IMG/VR virus record: IMGVR_UViG_2541047795_000004
Length of the DNA stretch: 44,950 nt
Origin: a virus
Lineage: Duplodnaviria; Heunggongvirae; Uroviricota; Caudoviricetes
Reading direction: 5' to 3' (one strand)
Below are positions 5,388 to 43,400 of the stretch, piece by piece; the first letter of the stretch is position 1, and the number at the start of each line of letters is the position of its first letter. Under the pieces are notes generated by a model. It saw only the letters and a program-made list of their open reading frames with translations, made no database searches and was not told the origin of the DNA. Position numbers and translations under genes: made by a program.

Positions 5388-5488
5388 TGTTTTTTAACCT
5401 CAACTCAGATTAAAATTCGTTTTGTTCAGTGAATGATCTTGCCGGATACACACTGTTCATAGCCTGCGCCATACGCAGGCTATTTCTT

Positions 5489-5764
5489 TCAGATTTCACC
5501 TTTTAATTTCATTGCAATTAGAGTTGCCAGAAATTCGGCTTTTTTTTCTGCGGGCAGATTCTTTCCGATATGCACCAGGCACATTTTTTTGACACCTTCA
5601 TCAAGTGTTTTTACGTTGCCTGATGGACCATCGATATCAACCACAGTGAATGGGGTTTCTTTATTTTCTGTTTTAATTACGTAGCCAATGCGCTTTCCTT
5701 CCAGATTCACCTCGTGAACAATGTCATCGGTAGTTACAACAGTGGCTTCATAATTGGTAATCAT
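5489..5764 (-). CDS. racC: RacC-like small protein, 91 aa
   Basis: Start at MITNYEATVVTTDD with an AAGGAG Shine-Dalgarno; position upstream of recE. Confidence 0.75.
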   Translation of the reverse strand: MITNYEATVVTTDDIVHEVNLEGKRIGYVIKTENKETPFTVVDIDGPSGNVKTLDEGVKKMCLVHIGKNLPAEKKAEFLATLIAMKLKGEI

Positions 5765-5838
5765 GTTTTTCTCCTTAATTAAGGTTGAGCGAATACCTGC
5801 CATTTCTGGCATAAATTCAGTTTCGAATAGTCAATTAA

Positions 5839-6009
5839 TTAAAGTTCATGTGCCATCTGGTCTTTTTCGGCACAAGCTTCACTGCAATATTTTCTCGGTT
5901 CGTCTTTTGATAAAATCCCGTGCATGAAGTGAAGCATTCTTTCAATAGCTTTGCTTTCTTCAACGTCTTTTTTGCAAAGGTGGTAAGCACATTTTATTTT
6001 CTTAGTCAT
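5839..6009 (-). CDS. ydaE: YdaE-like Cys-rich small protein, 56 aa (below the ORF-track size cut-off)
   Basis: Hand-translated minus-strand [59 protein letters not shown]; its ATG overlaps the kilR stop as TGATG (6007-6011). Confidence 0.6.
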   Translation of the reverse strand: MTKKIKCAYHLCKKDVEESKAIERMLHFMHGILSKDEPRKYCSEACAEKDQMAHEL

Positions 6010-6230
6010 CACCATGACTCCGCCTTTACAGGTAAACCATCACGACCGAGGAAGACTTTAATCATGCGGTCAGTAATGCATGTTTTTGTGGTCAGGTTAC
6101 GAATATATAGTTTTCGCTTTTTAATATTGTTTGCCGAGGCAATATATGTCCGGCCTTCATGAAGAACATAATCGCCAGGAGTCACACACTGACGTGGTAT
6201 TTCATCAGTTCCGAAGTGATGTGCAATCAT
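6009..6230 (-). CDS. kilR: KilR-like cell-division inhibitor, 73 aa
   Basis: Sequence from [29 protein letters not shown] matches KilR as recalled; GGAGA Shine-Dalgarno before the ATG at 6230. Confidence 0.8.
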
Positions 6231-8982: not shown

Positions 8983-9153
8983 AGGTGAAAACAAATGGCT
9001 TCAAACTGGATAAAGCTCGAAGTTATTACGCCGGATAAGCCGGAAATATTCAGGCTTGCTGAGATTCTGAATATTGATCCAGATGCCGCATTAGGGAAAG
9101 TCATTCGCTTCTGGGCATGGGCGGATCAACAAATGATAGACGGTAACGCAGAG

Positions 9154-9174
9154 TGTAACGCTCGAGGCGTTACA
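9154..9174. repeat. 21-bp palindrome TGTAACGC-N5-GCGTTACA, copy 2
   Basis: Perfect 8-5-8 inverted repeat inside the replication gene; a GGTAACGC half-site lies at 9142-9149. Confidence 0.7.
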
Positions 9175-9361
9175 AAAAGTGCAATAGACCGTATCACTTT
9201 TATGGCTGGTTTTGCTGATGCGTTAATTCAGGTTGGATGGCTGGTCGAAAGTGATGGAGTGCTTTCACTACCAAACTTTGAGCGTCATAACGGAAAAAGC
9301 TCGAAAAAAACGGGCGGTTACAAACGAGAGAGTTACAAAAATACGCGAACTGAAGCGAAAA

Positions 9362-9382
9362 GGTAACGCTGCCAGCGTTACA
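9362..9382. repeat. 21-bp palindrome GTAACGC-N7-GCGTTAC, copy 3
   Basis: Same half-sites as copies 1 and 2; further GTTACAAA and GCGTTACC half-sites nearby (9317-9340, 9398-9406). Confidence 0.65.
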
Positions 9383-9790
9383 CAAACGGATCAAAAAGCG
9401 TTACCAGAGGAAGAGGAAGAGGAAGATATAAATACTGATCTCCCCCTAAATCCCCCTCGGCAAAAACGAGCGTCTAAACAATTCGAGCCGGAGGCCATTG
9501 CTCTGCCCGACTGGTTGCCAGAAACACTCTGGAATGAGTGGGTCCAGTTCAGGCAGGCATTGCGAAAACCGATTCGAACGGAGCAGGGCGCTAACGGGGC
9601 GATACGGGAACTGGAAAAATTCCGCCAGCAGGGTTTTACCCCTGAGCAGGTGATTCGACACAGCATCGCCAATGAATACCAGGGCTTGTTCGCGCCGAAA
9701 AGTGTTCGGCCTGAGACGTTGCTCCGACAGGTTAACACTGTCTCGTTTCCGGACAGTGCGATCCCGCCAGGCTTCAGGGGGTAACTGACC

Positions 9791-12433: not shown

Positions 12434-13867
12434 TTAACTACAGTAACTATTGATTAAGTGAGAACTGAGCCAAGAGGTAATTGCATTCGTAGCATGTTCA
12501 TCAAGCATTGAGAATCCTAATATGATCATTATAAATGAAATCAGCAAAGTCAGAATCACAACGAATGTGGCTATAATCTGATAAGCTTTGTATGCTTCTC
12601 TTAATGGTGTGACTGCAAGATTCTCATAGTCAGTATCATCAAGAAAACCATATAGTTTATCTCTCCAGACTAGCCTAGTATTATCAAGTATCTTAAAGTA
12701 ATTTTTATTTATGAAGAGAGTTGTAACCTGAGATATAAAAATATATATAGATAACGCGAAGAACATATATGGGAATATGTTATTGGTTATATTAATCTTT
12801 GATGCGTCTAGCGCATATTTTATTGCAAATAGACTTATAACCAGAGCCAGATCTTTCCAAAGAGCGGATGTGATGTCTTTAGACTGACTTATTATTTTTT
12901 GCGTGTCTTCAGCTAAGGTTTTCCTTAGATCGGACAGAGATTTAATAGTCTCTCTGCTGCTAGCGCGAATGTGGGCCTTATATAGTAATTTTGCTGACTC
13001 AAAGGCCATAGGGAGTTTTTTTGGTAAACCCTCACAGAAGGATACATACTCTGGCCATTCTCGTGCTAACTCACTTGTGAAGAAAGTATGTTTGAGTTCA
13101 ATCTCATTGCCCTCAATAAAGATCCAGTTTATTACAGTTTGTAAAACTGAATAGTCGGAAAGCAGAATGTCTGGATCTCCATAAATTAATTTTTTTGGTG
13201 GCTTTCCAGTTAAACAAATTGATTTCTTTTCATCTGCTAATAATTCATTAACGAGAGTGCGACAAAGCATATTGCAGGAAACTTGTAACCATTTTTTGAA
13301 AAAGTTGTCCTCTGCCTCAGGCATTTTATAAAGTACCCAAGGAGCTATATCAGATGCAGGCATGAACTCACTAGAATAGAATTTAACGTAGCTCTGTAAA
13401 TTGATTGAAGTTCGTACGGTTTCATTAGATTCAATTTTTTCTGGAGCATGGTTCCATGGCTCAACAGAATATCCTAAAGTTTCAAATCCATGTTTCAAAC
13501 CGAGAATATTCACTTTATTGGTTATTGATACTAAATCATCATTGTGTAGAAAAACATTCCACCCTTCGAGCGTAAAAATATACCTGTTATTTTCGAATGC
13601 AATGCATTTTAGCGTAATGTTAAGTTTATCACCTTCACTGCATGACGATGGTTTTACTTCATCATTACAGTCATCTTTAACAGTAATTTCAATCCAATTT
13701 GGTACGTTTTCGTAAACGTACTGCCAAAGAATGAGTGCATCTTTGTCCATTTTGGCAGAAATTAGAACGCGCGCAGAATCATTTTTTATTGATTCTGATG
13801 CCAAAAATTCAGGGTCTTTCCTTGACGCCTGTATAGACTCATCGATTTTTTGAAGTATCGATGTCAT
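12434..13867 (-). CDS. Cassette gene B: uncharacterised 477-aa protein, large soluble N-terminal domain plus C-terminal transmembrane helices
   Basis: Hydrophobic helices IFPYMFFALSIYIFISQVTTLFI and IIATFVVILTLLISFIMIILGFSML near the C-terminus; GAGGA Shine-Dalgarno 10 nt before the ATG at 13867; overlaps gene A by 29 nt; AT-rich. Confidence 0.7.
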   Translation of the reverse strand: MTSILQKIDESIQASRKDPEFLASESIKNDSARVLISAKMDKDALILWQYVYENVPNWIEITVKDDCNDEVKPSSCSEGDKLNITLKCIAFENNRYIFTLEGWNVFLHNDDLVSITNKVNILGLKHGFETLGYSVEPWNHAPEKIESNETVRTSINLQSYVKFYSSEFMPASDIAPWVLYKMPEAEDNFFKKWLQVSCNMLCRTLVNELLADEKKSICLTGKPPKKLIYGDPDILLSDYSVLQTVINWIFIEGNEIELKHTFFTSELAREWPEYVSFCEGLPKKLPMAFESAKLLYKAHIRASSRETIKSLSDLRKTLAEDTQKIISQSKDITSALWKDLALVISLFAIKYALDASKINITNNIFPYMFFALSIYIFISQVTTLFINKNYFKILDNTRLVWRDKLYGFLDDTDYENLAVTPLREAYKAYQIIATFVVILTLLISFIMIILGFSMLDEHATNAITSWLSSHLINSYCS

Positions 13868-14897
13868 CAGTAATAATCCTCGCAGTAGTAACAATAATTT
13901 GTTTTCGCCCATCATCTAAGTTTCTTATTTCTGGACGGTCATCTTCATTATAACTAATTACTACACTTTCTGCAGTTTCAATTTTTCGTCTTGGTGGTTT
14001 ATGAATGCCATCTGCTTTTATAGTAAAGGATTCGCCTTCAATACCAGCATTTTTTGTTTGAGTTTTGAATGTGTTGAGAATTGGTGATTTTTCATCTAAC
14101 GGCCCAAAAATGCTGGTCAATAACGGAGAAGCATCTTCAGGATTATATTCGAAATCAGCTCTGCTTAAAACTTCATATATTTTATTTACGCCGCTTTTTT
14201 GAATTGACTCTGGCAATAATTCTTTATGCCTTTTGAAGGTTATTTTCAGCGCATCAATAAGCTTATTGCAAAGTTCAATTTCAGAGTTGACTCTTTTAAC
14301 ATTTAAGAAGCCTTTAAAATATCCTGAAATATTGGTTCTTTTACTCCTGTCTTTTACAATAACTTTCCCGCCTTTCCCACTTGGATCAAGTTGAATTAAC
14401 GCTATTTTTTGCATTGCCTCAGCTTTTTTTACGAAAGTTTCATGAAATCTTTCTAAAGTAGGCATTTGTTCTTCAGATAACTTTTCGTCAAGAACATAAC
14501 GAACCACATCTTCATTATCGTATTTTATAATTGCATAGAATTTTTCCTTATCTGAAACCAATTCAAATAAGAAAAAGCATCCCATACTCGTGTTACCGCT
14601 AGAATGGTGTGACTGAAAATCACTGGCCAGTAGCTTCGATTGTTCTGTAAAACAATTAGCTTCAGCATCTGCTTTATCTCTAATGATACGCAGGATTCTT
14701 TCGGTATTTGAATTCTCCAGAAAAGTGAAAAGATTTCCTTTCAGTGAAGATTTGATACGTTCAAGAAAAAAATCCACATGCTGAACTGGTTTTATTTCTT
14801 TGAGAAGTGTCGGTGCTTCAAGATTCTTACCTACAACGTGAAAGATCATTTTATTAATGACTAAATTTTGTACGTCTTGTTCAGAAAGGAAACTCAT
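13839..14897 (-). CDS. Cassette gene A: uncharacterised 352-aa cytoplasmic protein, tentative weak resemblance to NA37/YejK-type nucleoid-associated proteins
   Basis: GGAG Shine-Dalgarno before the ATG at 14897; no transmembrane segment; the NA37 resemblance is by eye only and unverified. Confidence 0.7.
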   Translation of the reverse strand: MSFLSEQDVQNLVINKMIFHVVGKNLEAPTLLKEIKPVQHVDFFLERIKSSLKGNLFTFLENSNTERILRIIRDKADAEANCFTEQSKLLASDFQSHHSSGNTSMGCFFLFELVSDKEKFYAIIKYDNEDVVRYVLDEKLSEEQMPTLERFHETFVKKAEAMQKIALIQLDPSGKGGKVIVKDRSKRTNISGYFKGFLNVKRVNSEIELCNKLIDALKITFKRHKELLPESIQKSGVNKIYEVLSRADFEYNPEDASPLLTSIFGPLDEKSPILNTFKTQTKNAGIEGESFTIKADGIHKPPRRKIETAESVVISYNEDDRPEIRNLDDGRKQIIVTTARIITDDIDTSKNR

Positions 14898-15226: not shown

Positions 15227-15382
15227 ATGAAGCAGCAAAAGGCGATGTTAGTCGCCCTGATCGTCATCTGTTTAACCGTTATAGTGACGGTACTGGTAAC
15301 GAGGAAAGACCTCTGCGAGGTACGAATCCGAACCGACCAGACGGAGGTCGCTGTCTTCACAGCTTACGAACTTGGGGAGTAA
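15227..15382 (+). CDS. hok: Hok/Gef-family type I toxin, 51 aa
   Basis: MKQQKAMLVALIVICLTVIVTVLVTRKDLCEVRIRTDQTEVAVFTAYE is a Hok-family sequence with one transmembrane helix; a 7-bp stem-loop follows at about 15389-15407. Confidence 0.8.
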   Translation: MKQQKAMLVALIVICLTVIVTVLVTRKDLCEVRIRTDQTEVAVFTAYELGE

Positions 15383-17627: not shown

Positions 17628-17703
<76 letters not shown>

Positions 17704-17706
17704 TAT

Positions 17707-17781
<75 letters not shown>

Positions 17782-19871: not shown

Positions 19872-21329
19872 ATGAATACATCTCATGTAAGAGTTGTTAC
19901 TCATATGTGTGGGTTCCTGGTTTGGCTCTATAGTCTTTCAATGTTGCCACCAATGGTTGTAGCATTGTTTTATAAAGAAAAAAGCCTGTTCGTTTTCTTT
20001 ATAACTTTCGTTATATTTTTTTGCATTGGTGGCGGAGCGTGGTATACAACTAAGAAATCTGGCATTCAATTACGTACCCGTGATGGGTTTATTATAATTG
20101 TAATGTTTTGGATTTTGTTTTCTGTTATTAGTGCATTCCCTTTATGGATTGACTCAGAACTTAATTTAACGTTCATTGATGCTCTGTTTGAAGGGGTTTC
20201 TGGAATAACAACAACAGGAGCAACTGTAATTGATGATGTTAGTTCATTACCTCGGGCATATTTGTACTATCGGTCACAGTTAAATTTTATAGGTGGTTTA
20301 GGAGTTATTGTTCTGGCGGTTGCTGTATTGCCATTATTGGGTATTGGTGGTGCAAAGCTTTATCAGTCAGAAATGCCGGGGCCATTTAAGGATGACAAAC
20401 TCACTCCCCGCCTGGCCGATACGTCACGGACACTGTGGATAACTTATTCTTTATTAGGTATTGCTTGTATTGTCTGTTATAGACTTGCAGGAATGCCTTT
20501 GTTTGATGCTATTTGTCACGGGATTTCCACAGTTTCGCTTGGTGGTTTCTCAACTCATAGCGAGAGTATCGGATATTTTAATAACTATTTGGTTGAGCTG
20601 GTGGCTGGTTCTTTTTCCCTGCTATCGGCTTTCAACTTCACTCTTTGGTATATTGTTATTAGCAGGAAAACGATAAAACCTTTAATCAGAGATATTGAAC
20701 TTCGTTTCTTTCTGTTAATAGCCTTAGGGGTGATCATTGTTACCTCTTTCCAGGTCTGGCATATAGGTATGTATGACTTGCATGGAAGTTTTATTCATTC
20801 GTTTTTTCTTGCCAGCTCCATGCTCACTGATAATGGTTTAGCTACGCAGGATTATGCAAACTGGCCCACGCACACGATAGTGTTTTTGCTGTTGTCAAGT
20901 TTCTTTGGGGGATGTATAGGTTCAACTTGTGGTGGAATTAAGTCACTTCGATTTCTTATACTTTTCAAACAAAGCAAACACGAGATAAATCAGCTTTCTC
21001 ATCCCAGAGCGTTGTTGAGTGTAAATGTAGGAGGGAAGATAGTTACAGATCGTGTAATGAGGTCTGTATGGAGTTTCTTTTTTCTTTATACTCTCTTCAC
21101 GGTGTTTTTTATACTGGTGTTAAATGGTATGGGATATGATTTTCTTACATCATTTGCAACAGTGGCTGCATGTATTAATAATATGGGATTAGGTTTTGGG
21201 GCTACTGCATCGTCATTCGGAGTGCTTAATGACATTGCAAAATATTTAATGTGCATAGCTATGATTCTTGGTCGCCTTGAAATTTATCCTGTTATTATAT
21301 TGTTTTCAGGTTTTTTTTGGCGCTCCTAA
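19872..21329 (+). CDS. trkG: TrkG potassium-uptake membrane protein (moron)
   Basis: 485-aa polytopic membrane protein from MNTSHVRVVTHMCGFLVWLYS, matching TrkG as recalled; AT-rich with AT-rich flanks. Confidence 0.9.
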   Translation: MNTSHVRVVTHMCGFLVWLYSLSMLPPMVVALFYKEKSLFVFFITFVIFFCIGGGAWYTTKKSGIQLRTRDGFIIIVMFWILFSVISAFPLWIDSELNLTFIDALFEGVSGITTTGATVIDDVSSLPRAYLYYRSQLNFIGGLGVIVLAVAVLPLLGIGGAKLYQSEMPGPFKDDKLTPRLADTSRTLWITYSLLGIACIVCYRLAGMPLFDAICHGISTVSLGGFSTHSESIGYFNNYLVELVAGSFSLLSAFNFTLWYIVISRKTIKPLIRDIELRFFLLIALGVIIVTSFQVWHIGMYDLHGSFIHSFFLASSMLTDNGLATQDYANWPTHTIVFLLLSSFFGGCIGSTCGGIKSLRFLILFKQSKHEINQLSHPRALLSVNVGGKIVTDRVMRSVWSFFFLYTLFTVFFILVLNGMGYDFLTSFATVAACINNMGLGFGATASSFGVLNDIAKYLMCIAMILGRLEIYPVIILFSGFFWRS

Positions 21330-33167: not shown

Positions 33168-33629
33168 ATGAGGTTATGGATGTTTATTCTTAATCAGAAA
33201 ATTATCATTGGTGGAGAACGCTGGTTTACGCCAATGAAGGACTTAAAACCTGTAGACGGGTTAAAACTGTTGGTGGCAAGCAGCGATAACGATCAGTATC
33301 GCTCCCGTAATGCATTAATCCGTCGCCACATTGAGAAAATGGATGCCAGTTTGCACGTCGGAACGAAGGAGTTTGATATTTCAAAGGTTTCCGAGGTGGA
33401 TTCTGTTGATGATTTACTCATTGATAATGCCGCTCGTTATCTGCTGAAAGACTGGAAAGGGGTTGGTGAACTGGTTAATGGTGTTGAGGTTGCACTGGAA
33501 TATACGGCAGAACGAGGGATCGCGCTGCTTAAGCAGAATCCAGAGTTGTACTGGCAGATCCTTGCAGAAGCAGCCAGCATCGCCCAGGGTAAAGAGCAGC
33601 AGAAGCAGGATACGATAAAAAAGCCATAG
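33168..33629 (+). CDS. Tail assembly chaperone (lambda G analogue)
   Basis: Position between the major tail and tape-measure genes; ends TIKKP* directly over the slippery heptamer. Confidence 0.65.
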   Translation: MRLWMFILNQKIIIGGERWFTPMKDLKPVDGLKLLVASSDNDQYRSRNALIRRHIEKMDASLHVGTKEFDISKVSEVDSVDDLLIDNAARYLLKDWKGVGELVNGVEVALEYTAERGIALLKQNPELYWQILAEAASIAQGKEQQKQDTIKKP

Positions 33630-33937
33630 CTGCCCAGCGGTGGTTATCGGAGTTCGGGGGAGAAAGGGGGGAAAAGGCAAGATGGAAGCGAGAAAAACTC
33701 AGGTTGCCACCGATACCGGAACCAGAAATAGACCCGGTGCTTAAGGAGTTGTTGTACGCCTATTCGGTAATATCCCGTGCCCGACGTTATGCTGGAATGG
33801 CTGGGGTGCCTTTGCCTTTATCTCTGACAGAGATAAATGAATATTTAGCCACTCATCCGGTATTGATTGAGCGCGATGAATTTGAAGCAGTGATCTTTGC
33901 ACTGGATGACCAGTATTTTCAGGAGCAGTGTGTGTAG
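33168..33937 (+). CDS. Tail assembly chaperone fusion (lambda GT analogue) via -1 programmed frameshift at A_AAA_AAG (33617-33623)
   Basis: The -1 frame is open from 33620 to 33937 with no ATG of its own (ORF-track entry starts at a TTG at 33704). Confidence 0.55.
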
Positions 33938-34058
33938 TTGTTAATTACGTACACTCTGTTACAGAGATGTGATGGTGTCTTTAATTAAATCGATGATGCT
34001 CCTGGAGAAAAGCATTGCGTGGCCTCGTAATCGCTATATCTACTATTATGTCGCCTGA

Positions 34059-34084
34059 AACCCACTTCGCGGTGGGTTTTTTGT
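34059..34084 (+). terminator. Hairpin with T-run between the chaperone and tape-measure genes (possible attenuator)
   Basis: AACCCAC-TTCGCG-GTGGGTT followed by T6. Confidence 0.4.
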
Positions 34085-35420
34085 TGTCAGGAGTTTTAAT
34101 AAATGGCAGAGCAAACCTCGCGTCTCGCAATAATTATTGATAGCACTGGAGCGAAAAATAATGCTGACAATCTGACCTCCTCATTAGTCAAAATGACGCA
34201 GGCTGGGGAAACTGCTGCAAATAGCGCAGGGAAAGTGACTAAGGCAACAGAAGATGAGAAGAACGCGCTCGCAAAATTAAAAGTAGCTATTGATCCAGTT
34301 GGTGCCGCAATTGATACTGTCGGTCGACGCTATTCTGAATTAAAGAAATTTTTCGATAAAGGGCTTATTGATAAAGAAGAATATGAATTTCTTGTCCGTA
34401 AACTTAATGAAACCACAGAGGAATTGAGCGGGGTTGCGCAAGCGCAGAGAGAAGCCGAGAAGGCCGGAAAACTTGCTGCCGCCCAGCAGGAAGCGCAGGC
34501 TCAGGCCTTTCAAAGAATGCTGGACAAGATCGACCCTCTGGCTGCGGCGCTAAGAAATCTTGAACAACAGCATGATGAACTTAATGCTGCGTTTGCATCC
34601 GGGAAAATAAATGGTTCTCAGTTTGAGAATTATAGCCGAAAAATACAGGAAACACGGCGAGAGCTTACCGGAGAGGCTCAGGCAGAGCGAGAAGCAGCAA
34701 AAGCGCATGATGAACAGGTTGTTGCTTTGCAACGTCTGATTGCTCAACTTGATCCTGTCGGAACTGCTTTTAATCGTCTGGTAGAACAACAGAAACAGCT
34801 CAATGAAGCAAAAGCTAAGGGGATGCTTTCTCCTGAAATGTATGAGGAGCTTTCTGGAAAACTTCGTGCTATGCGGAGTGAGCTTGAGGTTACTCAATCA
34901 CAATTAAGCAAAACCGGAATGTCGGCAAAACAAACGGCTTTTGCTATGCGCATGTTGCCTGCACAAATGACGGATATTGTTGTTGGGTTGTCCACTGGTC
35001 AGTCGCCATTTATGGTGTTAATGCAGCAGGGCGGCCAGCTAAAAGATATGTTCGGTGGGATTGGCCCGGCGATCAAAGGTGTAGGTTCTTATGTGCTGGG
35101 ATTAGTTAATCCTTTTACCCTAGCCGCAGCAGCCGTTGGGGTCTTAGGACTGGCTTACTATAAAGGCTCTCAGGAGCAGGACGAATTTAATAAATCTCTT
35201 ATTCTTACCGGAAATCAGTTGGGGACAACCAGCGGGCAATTGGGCGATATAGCTCAACGTGCCGGGAATGCGGCTGATTCGACAACTGGTGCTGCGGCGG
35301 CAGTATTAAATCAGCTTGTGCGTTCGGGAAAGGTAGCGAGCAGTTCGCTGGAGCAAGTGACGACAGCGATAGTAAAAACGAGCGAAGTAACAGGAATATC
35401 AACCGGGTAATGACTCCAAC

Positions 35421-35924
35421 TTATTGATAGTGTTTTATGTTCAGATAATGCCCGATGACTTTGTCATGCAGCTCCACCGATTTTGAGAACGACAGCGACT
35501 TCCGTCCCAGCCGTGCCAGGTGCTGCCTCAGATTCAGGTTATGCCGCTCAATTCGCTGCGTATATCGCTTGCTGATTACGTGCAGCTTTCCCTTCAGGCG
35601 GGATTCATACAGCGGCCAGCCATCCGTCATCCATATCACCACGTCAAAGGGTGACAGCAGGCTCATAAGACGCCCCAGCGTCGCCATAGTGCGTTCACCG
35701 AATACGTGCGCAACAACCGTCTTCCGGAGACTGTCATACGCGTAAAACAGCCAGCGCTGGCGCGATTTAGCCCCGACATAGCCCCACTGTTCGTCCATTT
35801 CCGCGCAGACGATGACGTCACTGCCCGGCTGTATGCGCGAGGTTACCGACTGCGGCCTGAGTTTTTTAAGTGACGTAAAATCGTGTTGAGGCCAACGCCC
35901 ATAATGCGGGCAGTTACCCGGCAT
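35421..35924 (-). CDS. insB: IS1 transposase InsB
   Basis: 167-aa ORF matching IS1 InsB as recalled. Confidence 0.9.
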
Positions 35925-36118
35925 CCAACGCCATTCATGGCCATATCAATGATTTTCTGGTGCGTACCGGGTTGAGAAGCGGTGTAAGTGAACTGCAGTT
36001 GCCATGTTTTACGGCAGTGAGAGCAGAGATAGCGCTGATGTCCGGCGGTGCTTTTGCCGTTACGCACCACCCCGTCAGTAGCTGAACAGGAGGGACAGCT
36101 GATAGAAACAGAAGCCAC
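35843..36118 (-). CDS. insA: IS1 InsA
   Basis: 91-aa [46 protein letters not shown] with zinc-finger Cys pairs. Confidence 0.9.
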
Positions 36119-38105
36119 TGGAGCACCTCAAAAACACCATCATACACTAAATCAGTAAGTTGGCAGCATCACCGATCAACCGAACAACTGGTTAATGACT
36201 TCAATGAAATTGCAAAGGATCCTGTCAGTGCCATATCAAAACTTAATGATCAGTACCATTTTCTGACACTTGCGACTTATAACCAGATTAAGGCGCTACA
36301 GGATGAAGGGAACCAGCAGGAGGCCGCCCGCATTGCGACAGAAGAATACTCATCCTCAATGATCCAGCGCACCAACCAGATTAAAGAAAATCTTGGTTAT
36401 CTTGAGACTGCATGGAAAGCTGTCGCAGACTCCGCAAAATGGGCATGGGATTCCATGCTGGATATTGGCCGTGAGACCTCCCTTGATCAAAAAATCTCAG
36501 ATGTTCTCCGTCAAATTGATGAAATAGAAAAAAATACCCGACCCGGAGTTTTCGGGTTAGGTGGCATTGGAGATGGCGGAGCTCAAAATAAAAGGCTGGC
36601 ACGATTAAAGCAGCAATTGGGCGTACTTCAAGCAGAAAAAATTGCTCAGGACGTACTAAATTCATCAATAAACGATTACAACAAGCGACAACAGGAAGGA
36701 ATTGAACTCAGACAGAGAGCAGATGCCTTTTCAAAACAATATCAGACCCGGGAGCAGCAGAGAGCTAGTGAACTTGCAAAACTGGAAAAGCTAAAGAATC
36801 AGTATTCAAAGGAAGAATATAATAATCTTATCGCTCAAATAAATGAGCGTTATAAAGATCCAAAGCAACCAAAGGCGAAAGGTTATTCTGATGATGCAGC
36901 CCAACGAATGATTGATCATCTGAATCAACAGAATGCGTTACTAAGTTCACAAGCTGAGTTGACCGTTAAATTAAGTTCCTCTGAACAGGAACTGGTTAAG
37001 TGGCGTCAGCGGATTGCCGACCTAGAGTCACGACCATCAACGAAATTAACCCAGGATCAGAAATCGCTTCTCTTACACCGGGAAGAAATAACCGCGTTGA
37101 TGGAGAAAAATGTTGCGATTGAAAAAAATAACAGGCTAATCAAGGAATCCGCCGAAATAACAGCATGGCGTGATTCATTGCAGGCTTCGATTGATAATCG
37201 TCAGCAGGGGTATGATATTCAGATTGCTGGTTATGGGGTTGGCGATAAAAATCAGCAACGCCAGCAGGAATTACTGCGGATTGAACATGGATATAACAAT
37301 CAGCGTCTGCAACTTGAACGTGACTATGCAGATAAATCCCGTGGAATGTCAGATCATGTTTTTCAAGAGAAAATGCAGGCTCTGAATGATGCTCTGGAAC
37401 GGGAAAAAGAAATTGTCAGACAGAAAAACGAGCAGCTCGATATTCAGGCAGGAGACTGGGTTAGTGGTGCCTCCCAGGGATTCAATAACTGGCTGGATGA
37501 CACTAAGGATATCAGTGAGCAGATAAAATCAACCACGACTCAGATGTTTGATGGGATGACCGATGCGCTGGGTGATTTTGTCACGACAGGCAAGGCAAAT
37601 TTTCGTTCTTTCGCTACTTCCGTGATTTCGGATCTTAGTCGAATAGCATTAAAGGCTTCAATTACTGGGATTTTCGACAGCATTAGTAACAGTTCTTCTG
37701 GGGGGATTTTAGGAACTATCGGGAGTGCTATTAGTAAATTTATTCCGAATGCAAAGGGCGGTGTTTATGAGTCTCCGTCATTGAGCACGTATTCGAACGG
37801 TATTTATGATTCCCCGCAATTTTTTGCTTTTGCAAAAGGGGCTGGTGTTTTTGGTGAGGCTGGACCGGAAGCTATTATGCCATTAACACGAACTTCCGAT
37901 GGTTCTCTTGGTGTCAGAGCTATTAATAGTAAAAGTGGTAATGGAGGCGGAGATATTACCTATGCCCCTGTATACCAAATCACTATTCAAAATGACGGCC
38001 AGAATGGAGAGATTGGCCCTCAGGCAATAAAAGCACTTATGGGGATGGTTGATCAGCGGGTGCAGGGCAATCTGTTAAATATGCGACGTGATGGGGGAAT
38101 GTTAA

Positions 38106-38444
38106 GTGGCTAATACGGAAGAATTTCACTGGTTACCAGAGGATGGAATGAAAACAGAAAATAAACCATCGATAAAAACTGTAAGATTTGGTGATGGTTA
38201 TGAGCAACGAAGTCCAAATGGACTTAATCATTCTCTGCGCGTTTTCACCTGTGATTTCAAAGTTGAGGCGAATGAACGTGATTCATTTGAAAAATTTTTA
38301 GCCCGGCATGAAGGCTATAAATCTTTTTTTTGGCGCCCGCCGGGTATTAACAGAAAAATCAGAGTGGTGTGTCGAACGTGGTCAGCGACAGAACATATCA
38401 CCTATACCGATTTTTCGTGTCAGTTTGACGAAGTGGTGATCTGA
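38106..38444 (+). CDS. Minor tail protein M (lambda gpM-like); GTG start
   Basis: 112-aa ORF after the tape-measure gene, overlapping its stop; lambda tail gene order. Confidence 0.8.
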   Translation: MANTEEFHWLPEDGMKTENKPSIKTVRFGDGYEQRSPNGLNHSLRVFTCDFKVEANERDSFEKFLARHEGYKSFFWRPPGINRKIRVVCRTWSATEHITYTDFSCQFDEVVI

Positions 38445-40496: not shown

Positions 40497-43400
40497 ATGG
40501 GTAAAGGCAGCAGTAAGGGGCATACCCCGCGCGAAGCGAAGGACAACCTGAAATCATCCCAGATGCTGAGCGTGATAGACGCCATCAGTGAAGGGCCGAT
40601 TGAAGGTCCGGTGGACGGATTAAAAAGTGTGCTGCTGAACAGTACGCCGGTGCTGGACAGTGAGGGGAATACCAATATCGCCGGTGTCACGGTGGTGTTC
40701 CGGGCAGGTGAGCAGGAGCAGACACCGCCGGAGGGATTTGAATCCTCCGGCTCCGAGACGGTGCTGGGTACGGAAGTGAAGTACGACACGCCGATTACCC
40801 GGACCATCACGTCTGCAAACATCGACCGTCTGCGCTTTACCTTCGGTGTGCAGGCACTGGTGGAAACCACCTCAAAGGGGGACCGGAATCCGTCGGAAGT
40901 CCGCCTGCTGGTTCAGATACAGCGTAACGGTGGCTGGGTGACGGAAAAAGACATCACCATTAAGGGCAAAACCACCTCGCAGTATCTGGCCTCGGTGGTG
41001 GTGGATAACCTGCCTCCGCGCCCGTTCAATATCCGGATGCGCAGGATGACACCGGACAGCACCACAGACCAGCTGCAGAACAAAACGCTCTGGTCGTCAT
41101 ACACCGAAATCATCGATGTGAAACAGTGCTACCCGAACACGGCACTGGTCGGCGTGCAGGTGGATTCGGAGCAGTTCGGCAGCCAGCAGGTGAGCCGTAA
41201 TTATCATCTTCGCGGGCGCATTCTGCAGGTGCCGTCGAACTATAACCCGCAGACGCGGCAATACAGCGGTATCTGGGACGGAACGTTTAAGCCGGCATAC
41301 AGCAACAACATGGCCTGGTGTCTGTGGGATATGCTGACCCATCCGCGCTACGGCATGGGGAAACGTCTTGGTGCGGCAGATGTGGATAAATGGACGCTGT
41401 ATGTCATCGGCCAGTATTGCGACCAGTCGGTGCCGGACGGTTTTGGCGGCACGGAGCCGCGCATCACCTGTAATGCGTACCTGACCACGCAGCGTAAGGC
41501 GTGGGATGTGCTCAGTGATTTCTGCTCGGCGATGCGCTGTATGCCGGTATGGAACGGGCAGACGCTGACGTTCGTGCAGGACCGACCGTCGGATAAGGTG
41601 TGGACCTATAACCGCAGTAATGTGGTGATGCCGGATGATGGCGCGCCGTTCCGCTACAGCTTCAGCGCCCTGAAGGACCGCCATAATGCCGTTGAGGTGA
41701 ACTGGATTGACCCGGATAACGGCTGGGAAACGGCAACAGAGCTTGTGGAGGACACGCAGGCCATTGCCCGTTACGGTCGTAACGTCACGAAGATGGATGC
41801 CTTTGGCTGTACCAGCCGGGGGCAGGCGCACCGCGCCGGGCTGTGGCTGATTAAAACGGAACTGCTGGAAACGCAGACCGTGGATTTTAGCGTCGGCGCA
41901 GAAGGGCTTCGCCATGTACCGGGCGATGTTATTGAAATCTGTGATGATGACTATGCCGGTATCAGCACCGGTGGTCGTGTGCTGGCGGTGAACAGCCAGA
42001 CCCGGACGCTGACGCTCGACCGTGAAATCACGCTGCCATCCTCCGGTACCACGCTGATAAGCCTGGTTGACGGAAGTGGCAATCCGGTCAGCGTGGAGGT
42101 TCAGTCCGTCACCGACGGCGTGAAGGTAAAAGTGAGCCGTGTTCCTGACGGTGTTGCTGAATACAGCGTATGGGGGCTGAAGCTGCCGACGCTGCGCCAG
42201 CGACTGTTCCGCTGCGTGAGTATCCGTGAGAACGACGACGGCACGTATGCCATCACCGCCGTGCAGCATGTACCGGAAAAAGAGGCCATCGTGGATAACG
42301 GGGCGCACTTTGACGGCGAACAGAGTGGCACGGTGAACGGTGTCACGCCGCCAGCGGTGCAGCACCTGACCGCAGAAGTCACTGCAGACAGCGGGGAATA
42401 CCAGGTGCTGGCGCGCTGGGACACACCGAAGGTGGTGAAGGGCGTGAGCTTCCTGCTCCGTCTGACCGTAACAGCGGACGACGGCAGTGAGCGGCTGGTC
42501 AGCACGGCCCGGACGACGGAAACCACATACCGCTTCAGGCAGCTGGCTCTGGGAAATTACAGTCTGACAGTCCGGGCGGTAAATGCGTGGGGGCAGCAGG
42601 GCGATCCGGCGTCGGTATCGTTCCGGATTGCCGCACCGGCAGCACCATCGCGGATTGAGCTGACGCCGGGCTATTTTCAGATAACCGCCACGCCGCATCT
42701 TGCGGTTTATGATCCGACTGTACAGTTTGAGTTCTGGTTCTCGGAAAATCGGATTGCGGATATCAGGCAGGTTGAAACCAGCGCACGTTATCTTGGCACG
42801 GCGCTGTACTGGATAGCCGCCAGTATCAATATCAAACCGGGCCATGATTATTATTTTTACGTTCGCAGTGTGAACACCGTCGGCAAATCGACATTCGTGG
42901 AGGCTGTCGGCCGGGCGAGCGATGATGCGGAAGGTTACCTGGATTTTTTCAAAGGCCAGATAACCGAATCCCATCTCGGCAAGGAGCTGCTGGAAAAAGT
43001 CGAGCTGACGGAGGATAACGCCAGCAAACTGGAGGAGTTTTCGAAAGAGTGGAAGGACGCCAACGATAAATGGAATGCCATGTGGGGCGTCAAAATTGAG
43101 CAGACCGAAGACGGCAGGCATTATGTCGCGGGGCTTGGCCTTAGTATGGAGGATACGGAGGAAGGCAAACTGAGCCAGTTCCTGGTTGCCGCTAACCGTA
43201 TCGCGTTTATTGACCCGGCAAACGGGAATGAAACGCCGATGTTTGTGGCGCAGGGCAACCAGATATTCATGAACGAAGTGTTCCTGAAGTATCTGACGGC
43301 TCCCACCATTACCAGTGGCGGCAATCCTCCGGTATTTTCCCTGACACCGGACGGGCGGCTGACGGCGAAAAATGCCGATATCAGCGGTAACGTGAATGCG

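Follow-up and report, generated by a model that had tools for sequence, protein, structure and literature searches.

Organisation of the locus

The stretch of DNA analysed here (the window, 44,950 nucleotides) is the Rac prophage at ttcA of E. coli HVH 182, from the draft assembly GCA_000458705.1. It starts at intR and stops short of the tail-fibre genes and attR. Its first 25 kb are 100% identical to strain EC-1639, where intR abuts ttcA and where the Rac gene set intR/xisR, recET, kilR, sieB, ydaT/V and trkG is annotated. In the tail operon the tape-measure gene is split by an insertion sequence, with the following features.

33168..33937, + strand: tail assembly chaperone pair G/GT, from a slippery site, an open −1 frame and a weak Phage_TAC_18 match
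34103..35405, + strand: 5' part of the tape-measure gene, codons 1-434 and the first base of codon 435
35397..35405: left target-duplication copy, TATCAACCG, the same as the empty site in relatives
35406..36173, − strand: IS1 (IS1A type), complete, 768 bp, from its end sequences and identity to annotated IS1A
35406-35428: IRR of IS1, left end, beginning GGTAATGACTCC
35421..35924, − strand: insB' reading frame, Pfam DDE_Tnp_IS1 (precomputed)
35843..36118, − strand: insA, 91 aa, GTG start, Pfam Zn_ribbon_InsA and HTH_Tnp_IS1 (precomputed)
35861..35869, − strand: A6C −1 frameshift motif, TTAAAAAAC, fusing InsA to InsB'
36151-36173: IRL of IS1, right end, reverse complement, ending GGCAGCATCACC
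36174..36182: right target-duplication copy, GATCAACCG, with G36174 beside IRL where the empty site has T
36183..38113, + strand: 3' part of the tape-measure gene, from the rest of codon 435 to the stop, with TMP_4 and Tape_meas_lam_C
38106..38444, + strand: minor tail protein M (Pfam Phage_min_tail), the next tail-operon gene, beginning within the last bases of the tape-measure gene

The genes run in the order tube, G/GT (with its −1 slippery site), tape-measure gene, then M, L, K, I and J. This order is taken from how the near-identical EC-1639 copy is annotated, from a match to Phage_min_tail and a weak one to Phage_TAC_18, and from a slippery A AAA AAG (33617-33623) with an open −1 frame. 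The G reading frame (ydaY) stops at 33629, and beyond the slippery site the −1 frame continues to 33937 and makes a GT fusion of 256 aa. GT and the tape-measure gene are separated by a spacer of 165 bp, which contains a terminator-like hairpin.

The split tape-measure gene and its reconstruction

The upstream reading frame, 34103-35410, closes at a TAA inside IS1 (35408-35410), giving a 435-aa product (EQT41753.1) whose last glycine and stop codon are both supplied by the element. The frame of the 3' part is open back to 36086, within IS1, and contains no ATG, GTG or TTG upstream of 36359, the earliest in-frame start, from which a 584-aa ORF is read. The right end of IS1 was also examined for an outward-facing promoter-like site, and none was found.

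When IS1 and the right repeat are deleted in silico, a single ORF of 3234 nt results, encoding 1077 aa with no internal stops. The original prediction had held that the frames on the two sides agree once IS1 and one repeat are removed, giving a protein of about 1080 aa, and both the agreement and the approximate length are borne out. It had also proposed alignment to the intact tape-measure genes of relatives. In that alignment the reconstructed gene is the exact allele of E. coli Ecol_316 (WP_001587006.1), with 0 differences in 3234 nt; the same CDS is uninterrupted in both Ecol_316 and EC-1639 and interrupted in the window. The reconstructed protein matches TMP_2 (272.7 bits, residues 267-471), Tape_meas_lam_C (91.4 bits) and TMP_4 (86 bits), all above Pfam's cut-offs, and the insertion point, codon 434/435, falls within the TMP_2 domain, in keeping with the earlier view that the interrupted ORF is that of the tape-measure protein. 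In HVH 182 the product listed as a 'hypothetical protein' (G834_01495, 435 aa) and the 584-aa ORF are two halves of one tape-measure gene, and the annotation of the locus should read IS1-disrupted pseudogene in the Rac prophage.

The IS1 element and its junctions

As first described, the inserted element is a complete IS1 of exactly 768 bp with both inverted repeats; on comparison of its ends, IRR and IRL pair at 18 of 23 positions. From end to end it shows 100% identity to copies annotated as 'IS1-like element IS1A' on many plasmids, and because this identity extends over all 768 bp, chance is excluded. On translation, a −1 shift at the A6C motif yields a 232-aa InsAB' transposase, and InsA, the motif and InsAB' are all intact. 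Judged by its intact coding and end sequences, this IS1 copy is predicted to be transposition-competent.

The source genome is a draft assembly, and short reads do not span IS1, a repeat present in multiple copies, so that the element could in principle have been misplaced in scaffolding, the true gene being intact. Both junctions were, however, traced in Logan read assemblies through exact-protein look-ups. SRR958333 and ERR4501703 contain the left junction, and SRR958333 also contains the right one, odd G included; two contigs lead out of unique tape-measure sequence and reach 25-29 nt into IRR, and a third runs from 26 nt inside IRL onward into downstream tape-measure sequence. Independent assemblies from more than one sequencing project thus cross the two junctions. 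The original prediction had named reads with an insertion-free allele as evidence against it; the Logan contigs run through the junctions unbroken, where breaks would be expected if an empty-site allele were also abundant. We regard an assembly artefact as extremely improbable. The ends of Logan contigs were also considered as a guide to the flanks of other IS1 copies and were judged not interpretable for that use.

Other searches gave no further instance of the junctions. Exact scans of genome and metagenome contigs for both junction 30-32-mers returned no match, and a partial product beginning at 36146 was absent from protein records. The look-up of the 584-aa ORF returned two unrelated tape-measure lesions and no further IS1 junctions. 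A candidate second insertion at the same site, P0012 (435 aa), ends ...GISTE at a contig end, and hence reflects a truncated contig.

A simple and recent insertion

The empty site TATCAACCG is present in many complete genomes, in which the corresponding span equals the query minus exactly 777 bp. IS1 elements can also mark deletions, inversions or inter-IS1 recombination, in which case excision would not restore the gene. Such events are suggested by the 25 of 45 surveyed IS1 copies that have no target duplication, and by strain TW01221, in which IS1 cuts the tape-measure gene short at nt 2082, with unrelated DNA beyond the element. In HVH 182, by contrast, the two flanks of IS1 are contiguous in the intact allele, with no bases lost and eight of nine duplicated bases present. 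An IS1-mediated rearrangement is refuted by this empty-site alignment, and we give it next to no credence.

With 777 bp removed, the window differs from EC-1639 at 1 of 44,173 positions, which argues that the insertion is recent. Not one of 5,426 complete E. coli genomes carries it, an absence that makes it a clean lineage marker. The simplest mechanism would be that a transposition-competent IS1A-type element inserted once, at codon 434/435, in the full-length Rac prophage of the HVH 182 lineage. Slippage between the two 8-bp repeats ATCAACCG could then produce a 777-bp deletion and restore the exact wild-type gene, a reversion carried out in silico only. Our literature search found no paper on rates of IS1 precise excision.

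The imperfect target duplication

The original prediction had described a 9-bp target duplication. A flanking repeat is indeed present, and its two copies read as written there, but these copies, TATCAACCG and GATCAACCG, agree at only eight of nine bases, the exception being G36174, which adjoins IRL at the insA-proximal end of the element. An 8/9 duplication implies that the event departed somewhat from the textbook course or that a mutation followed it. The length of IS1 target duplications is reportedly variable (Iida et al., in 1985). IS1 directly duplicates 8-9 bp of target DNA (PMC12903888), and in our survey all 20 of the other repeat-flanked IS1 copies have perfect duplications of 8, 9 or 10 bp, without a single mismatch.

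Two mechanisms could make the odd G a product of the insertion. The duplication might be of 8 bp, ATCAACCG, with one extra base of donor flank brought by the IRL end; alternatively, a donor base might be retained on the 5' strand, giving a heteroduplex that was resolved to G. Because only 1 of 44,173 bases otherwise separates the prophage from EC-1639, a random hit on G36174 is improbable, the expected chance of a substitution at exactly this position being ~2 in 100,000. A footprint of transposition itself, as opposed to later mutation, is nevertheless a reading that we hold only tentatively and think rather unlikely. The literature search found no paper on mismatched IS1 duplications. The imperfect duplication beside IRL is the sole mechanistic curiosity of the locus.

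Discussion

What does the insertion mean for the prophage? The tape-measure protein is one continuous chain, and the tail tube is built around it on the tip complex. Cut in TMP_2, the gene would yield an N-terminal stub of 435 aa, and its C-terminal part lacks any start codon before 36359. Because the tape-measure protein must be one continuous chain, we infer, by analogy with the genetics of lambda gene H, that the prophage should no longer make its own tails. At ~0.15 nm of tail per residue (PMC9928086), the uninterrupted protein of 1077 aa would predict a tail of ~160 nm. Any polar effect that IS1 has on the tail genes downstream may be overcome by Q antitermination.

It could be argued that the split gene still permits tails, either with the 584-aa C-terminal fragment serving as a short ruler or with tails provided in trans. 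In-frame deletions in lambda gene H are described as giving shorter, functional tails (Katsura and Hendrix 1984, cited in PMC9928086). In multi-prophage hosts defective prophages can be packaged and transferred, and O157 prophages, though defective, continue to be released as particles (PMC2669165); the tails of a co-resident lambdoid prophage might likewise complement the defect in trans. Against this, the insertion interrupts the TMP_2 domain itself, and the 584-aa frame has neither a promoter-like site nor a start codon upstream of 36359. Continued tail formation by either route seems to us improbable, and loss of the prophage's own tails is the expected outcome.

A more serious alternative is that the insertion had no functional effect and was neutral decay in a prophage already grounded, one that could no longer finish the lytic cycle. 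The YdaU-family replication initiator gene (8995-9784) carries a +1 frameshift at an A7 run (9304-9310), compared with the intact ES7 allele. The frameshift is found also in EC-1639, where the insertion is absent and where RefSeq flags the gene as frameshifted. The prophage is therefore not 'otherwise remarkably intact', as had been supposed. Tape-measure lesions, moreover, are recurrent in this family of prophages, consistent with relaxed selection: ETEC1717 has two other IS1 copies in the gene, TW01221 has IS1 and a deletion, SRR12108863 has a nonsense change, and the ON4705xx prophage records have split tape-measure CDSs. On the other side, all remaining genes of the EC-1639 prophage are annotated as intact; some leakiness of the A7 frameshift might also be possible, or the initiator might be dispensable where host or helper functions stand in for it. 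The balance between these observations leaves a neutral insertion only slightly less probable than one that mattered.

Records labelled as phages hold tape-measure genes that are 98-99.7% identical, that of Salmonella phage SPF_0923 reaching 99.7%. The nine ON4705xx (vB_EcoS) records were considered as evidence of live virions and set aside, since they are in-silico prophages of clinical isolates, several with split CDSs. Two minus-strand cargo genes at 12434-14897 gave no match in PADLOC.

We conclude that the locus very probably records one simple and recent IS1 insertion into the Rac tape-measure gene, with the expected loss of tails as further decay. The insertion would be a step added to a frameshifted replication initiator gene that was already there, making the locus a further example of stepwise prophage decay whose importance extends little beyond annotation; the knockout of a prophage gene by IS1 is ordinary and already known biology.

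Comparison with known systems

Compared with IS1A (IS1 family; ISfinder/RefSeq), the element in HVH 182 is identical in sequence, inverted repeats, insA, A6C motif and InsAB'. A short target duplication is common to both, and it is the 8/9 match, with its mismatch abutting IRL, that is unusual here.

The interrupted gene resembles that for lambda gpH, which is 853 aa in length, in its Tape_meas_lam_C domain, in its place behind a G/GT pair that carries a −1 slippery heptamer, and in the M-L-K-I-J order that follows. It differs in that the Rac tape-measure protein has 1077 aa and an N-terminal half of the TMP_2 family, and in the 165-bp spacer after GT.

The Rac prophage of K-12 presumably keeps just a fragment of the tape-measure gene, tmpR/ynaA. 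The ttcA site is common to the two prophages, as is the early region comprising intR, xisR, ralR, recET, racC, kilR, sieB, ydaT, ydaV, trkG and ydaY. Rac is widespread and its K-12 copy incomplete (PMC6379469), whereas the HVH 182 prophage has a full late region (terminase, portal, capsid and tail) with one clean break in the tape-measure gene.

Finally, the prophages of E. coli O157 Sakai have been tested for induction and release. Among their lesions are insertion sequences, chiefly IS629, within or close to morphogenesis genes. The likeness lies in retention: Sp1-Sp18 are lambdoid prophages with multiple defects that are kept in the chromosome (PMC2669165), as is the Rac prophage of HVH 182.

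The IS1 element and the gene it interrupts

The 768-bp element at 35406-36173, identified in the sequence of 35300-36300 and by script, is IS1A in every respect tested. Its left end is GGTAATGACTCCAACTTATTGAT and its right end the reverse complement of GGTGATGCTGCCAACTTACTGAT; the two match as inverted repeats at 18/23 positions, and many plasmid copies annotated as 'IS1-like element IS1A family transposase' are 100% identical to it over the full length. The complete IS1 with both inverted repeats that had been predicted is thus present. Its orientation is opposite to that of the phage genes (minus strand), which places the left, insA-proximal repeat (IRL) at the right, 36151-36173, and the right repeat (IRR) at the left. 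The 232-aa InsAB' fusion is intact, a promoter-like site for insA was detected within IRL, and the precomputed Pfam matches for the IS1 genes are Zn_ribbon_InsA, HTH_Tnp_IS1 and DDE_Tnp_IS1. Features of the element and its flanks are:

35397-35405: left flank repeat, TATCAACCG
35843-36118, minus strand: insA, 91 aa, intact (ORF calling and script)
35861-35869, minus strand: frameshift motif TTAAAAAAC, intact (script)
36174-36182: right flank repeat, GATCAACCG

The upstream ORF (34103-35410) encodes 435 residues, the last of which, with the stop codon, is supplied by IS1. Removal of IS1 and the right repeat copy by script gives a single ORF of 3234 nt, encoding 1077 aa (about 1080 had been predicted), with no differences from the 'phage tail tape measure protein' WP_001587006.1 of E. 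coli Ecol_316. The empty site in Ecol_316 reads ...GGAATATCAACCGAACAA..., with one TATCAACCG only, as it does in E. coli EC-1639. The event was a simple insertion of IS1 with duplication of the target; the flanking sequence is fully kept and IS1 is intact. Deletion in silico between the two 8-bp ATCAACCG repeats takes out 777 bp and brings back the wild-type codons, with Ile432 kept; removal of the left copy instead gives I432R.

The interrupted gene encodes a lambda-type tape-measure protein of the TMP_2 class. The protein has three Pfam matches, all far above the curated cut-off, and the position of IS1 falls within the first:

residues 267-471: TMP_2
residues 671-748: TMP_4
residues 858-932: Tape_meas_lam_C

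Gene order fits this identity:

upstream of the tape-measure gene: tail tube gene
33168-33937: G/GT chaperone pair, between the tail tube and tape-measure genes
downstream: M (Phage_min_tail; Pfam)
downstream, after M, in order: L, C40 peptidase (K), I, J and Lom (annotation of EC-1639)

The G ORF, which ends at 33629, is ydaY (Pfam Phage_YdaY) and contains the slippery heptamer A AAA AAG, a classic -1 site, at 33617-33623. The -1 frame is open to 33937, predicting a 256-aa GT fusion whose T part has a weak match to Phage_TAC_18; the RefSeq annotation of EC-1639 lists 'ydaY' only, and leaves the T part without annotation. GT and the tape-measure gene are separated by a 165-bp spacer (33938-34102), which contains a strong terminator-like hairpin at 34057-34080, with 10 pairs and a following T-run (about -16 kcal/mol for the folded 61-nt stretch). 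In strain ETEC1717 the same spacer holds an Ail/Lom-family gene (2118-2654 of the ETEC1717 sequence, L003), and it resembles a moron slot or what is left of one.

Consequences for tail assembly

Could the downstream part still act as a ruler? Its frame is open back to 36086, within IS1, but the first ATG, GTG or TTG start in it is at 36359, and no promoter-like site facing outward was found for it, which makes a functional short ruler unlikely. From the genetics of lambda gene H, a tape-measure protein has to be a single polypeptide, upon which the tip complex and the tube are assembled. Tails of its own are therefore not expected from this prophage, in line with the predicted tail defect. Any polarity of IS1 on M-J may be overridden by the prophage Q antiterminator.

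Junctions and target duplication

Logan read-assembly contigs from SRR958333 and ERR4501703 leave the tape-measure gene and continue for 25-29 nt into IRR, and another contig, from SRR958333, leads from 26 nt inside IRL via CACC/GATCAACCGAAC into the remaining gene. The evidence for both junctions, and for the odd G described below, is thus independent of the deposited scaffold, and the unbroken contigs speak against the empty-site allele being abundant in those samples. Together with the empty site in relatives and the 777-bp difference from them, these reads confirm the central reading that IS1 splits the tape-measure gene. The junction is absent from all 5,426 complete E. coli genomes, among which only three high-coverage matches were found, with IS1 elsewhere in the gene, and exact junction scans of genome and metagenome collections gave no match.

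The predicted 9-bp target duplication is present as a repeat, but matches at only 8/9 bases, the sole mismatch being G36174, which adjoins IRL. Target duplications of IS1 are reported as 8 or 9 bp (PMC12903888, citing Iida et al. 1985). A survey covered 45 distinct, full-length IS1 copies for which both flanks were available; they came from IMG/VR contigs and from two E. coli loci:

Target duplications flanking IS1 (n=45)
perfect 9 bp: 12 copies
perfect 8 bp: 6 copies
perfect 10 bp: 2 copies
none: 25 copies

All 20 repeat-flanked copies were perfect, and none of the 45 had a single-mismatch duplication. Since the prophage otherwise carries one substitution in 44 kb, a chance later mutation on G36174 has a very low prior probability (about 2 in 100,000). 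Alternatively, an 8-bp duplication may have been accompanied by one donor-flank G brought along with IRL, a 5' donor base may have been kept and the resulting heteroduplex resolved to it, or repair at a transposase nick may have introduced an error. The point is a minor one.

Identity and decay of the prophage

Over its first 25 kb the window has 100% identity to several complete E. coli chromosomes. For the last 20 kb, the same genomes align in two segments that together span exactly 777 bp less in the records than in the query. In EC-1639 (NZ_LR025101.1) the matching region is a prophage adjoining ttcA. Its genes include intR, xisR, rcbA, ralR, recT, recE, racC, kilR, sieB, ydaT and ydaV, and it also has a Q antiterminator, lysis cassette, trkG, terminase, portal, P22-type capsid gene and lambda-like tail. 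This site and gene set identify it as a full-length Rac prophage, the integration site and distribution of which have been described (PMC6379469). Compared base by base with EC-1639, the window minus IS1 and 9 bp differs once in 44,173 nt, at 41828 in gene J (G in the window, A in EC-1639); the insertion is therefore very recent. The 435-aa stub is an exact match to 'hypothetical protein G834_01495' (EQT41753.1) of E. coli HVH 182 (4-0985554), GCA_000458705.1, and exact-protein matching identifies this strain as the origin of the window. Cargo genes are:

12434-14897, minus strand: an overlapping gene pair (products of 493 aa and 352 aa) in reverse orientation, with the Q antiterminator on one side and the late genes on the other
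upstream of the lysis genes: tRNA-Thr(TGT) and tRNA-Gly(TCC) (ARAGORN)
prophage cargo: Hok/Gef family gene (placed by EC-1639 annotation)
between lysis cassette and terminase: trkG (placed by EC-1639 annotation)
prophage cargo coordinates, given jointly: 17628-17781, 15227-15382, 19872-21329

The 352-aa gene is a 'nucleoid-associated protein' in the EC-1639 annotation; PADLOC gave no match for either gene at 12434-14897.

The claim that the prophage is otherwise remarkably intact does not hold. In its YdaU-family replication initiator gene (8995-9784), a +1 frameshift at an A7 run, 9304-9310, leaves two overlapping ORFs; in alignment, the window has CTCGAAAAAAAC and the intact ES7 allele CTC-TAAAAAAC (that is, CTCTAAAAAAC). 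EC-1639, without IS1, has the same lesion (RefSeq: 'frameshifted', pseudogene), and the defect is therefore older than the insertion. The window ends after lom, with the tail fibres and attR beyond its reach.

The tape-measure gene has been broken independently in other strains, a recurrent event in this prophage family. In ETEC1717 it is interrupted by two other copies of IS1 (L003 3001-3768 and a copy annotated at 5482-6179), each with a perfect 9-bp duplication; TW01221 has IS1 with an adjacent deletion (L002 4286-5053); SRR12108863 has a C-to-T nonsense change 42 nt before the 584-aa ORF that in the window starts at 36359 (L010, about 959); and several in-silico prophage records, such as ON470595 (L013 4001-7234), give the gene as two CDSs. 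Such recurrent loss looks like the ordinary decay of a grounded prophage. In multi-prophage hosts, however, defective prophages are still induced and packaged (PMC2669165), so that tail-defective does not equate with immobile.

Partial N-terminal products from several unrelated draft assemblies (P0006, P0009, P0012 and P0014) all end at residues 435-453, at contig ends equivalent to about 35405-35460 and 36183-36240 of the window. Those genomes may therefore contain more than one copy of the gene's downstream half, as they would if a second prophage also had it, in which case a mosaic boundary would lie close to the IS1 site.

The knockout of a prophage morphogenesis gene by an insertion sequence is textbook biology. 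We conclude that the finding is correct and already known in kind, its only new element being the particular insertion site, which is private to the HVH 182 lineage.
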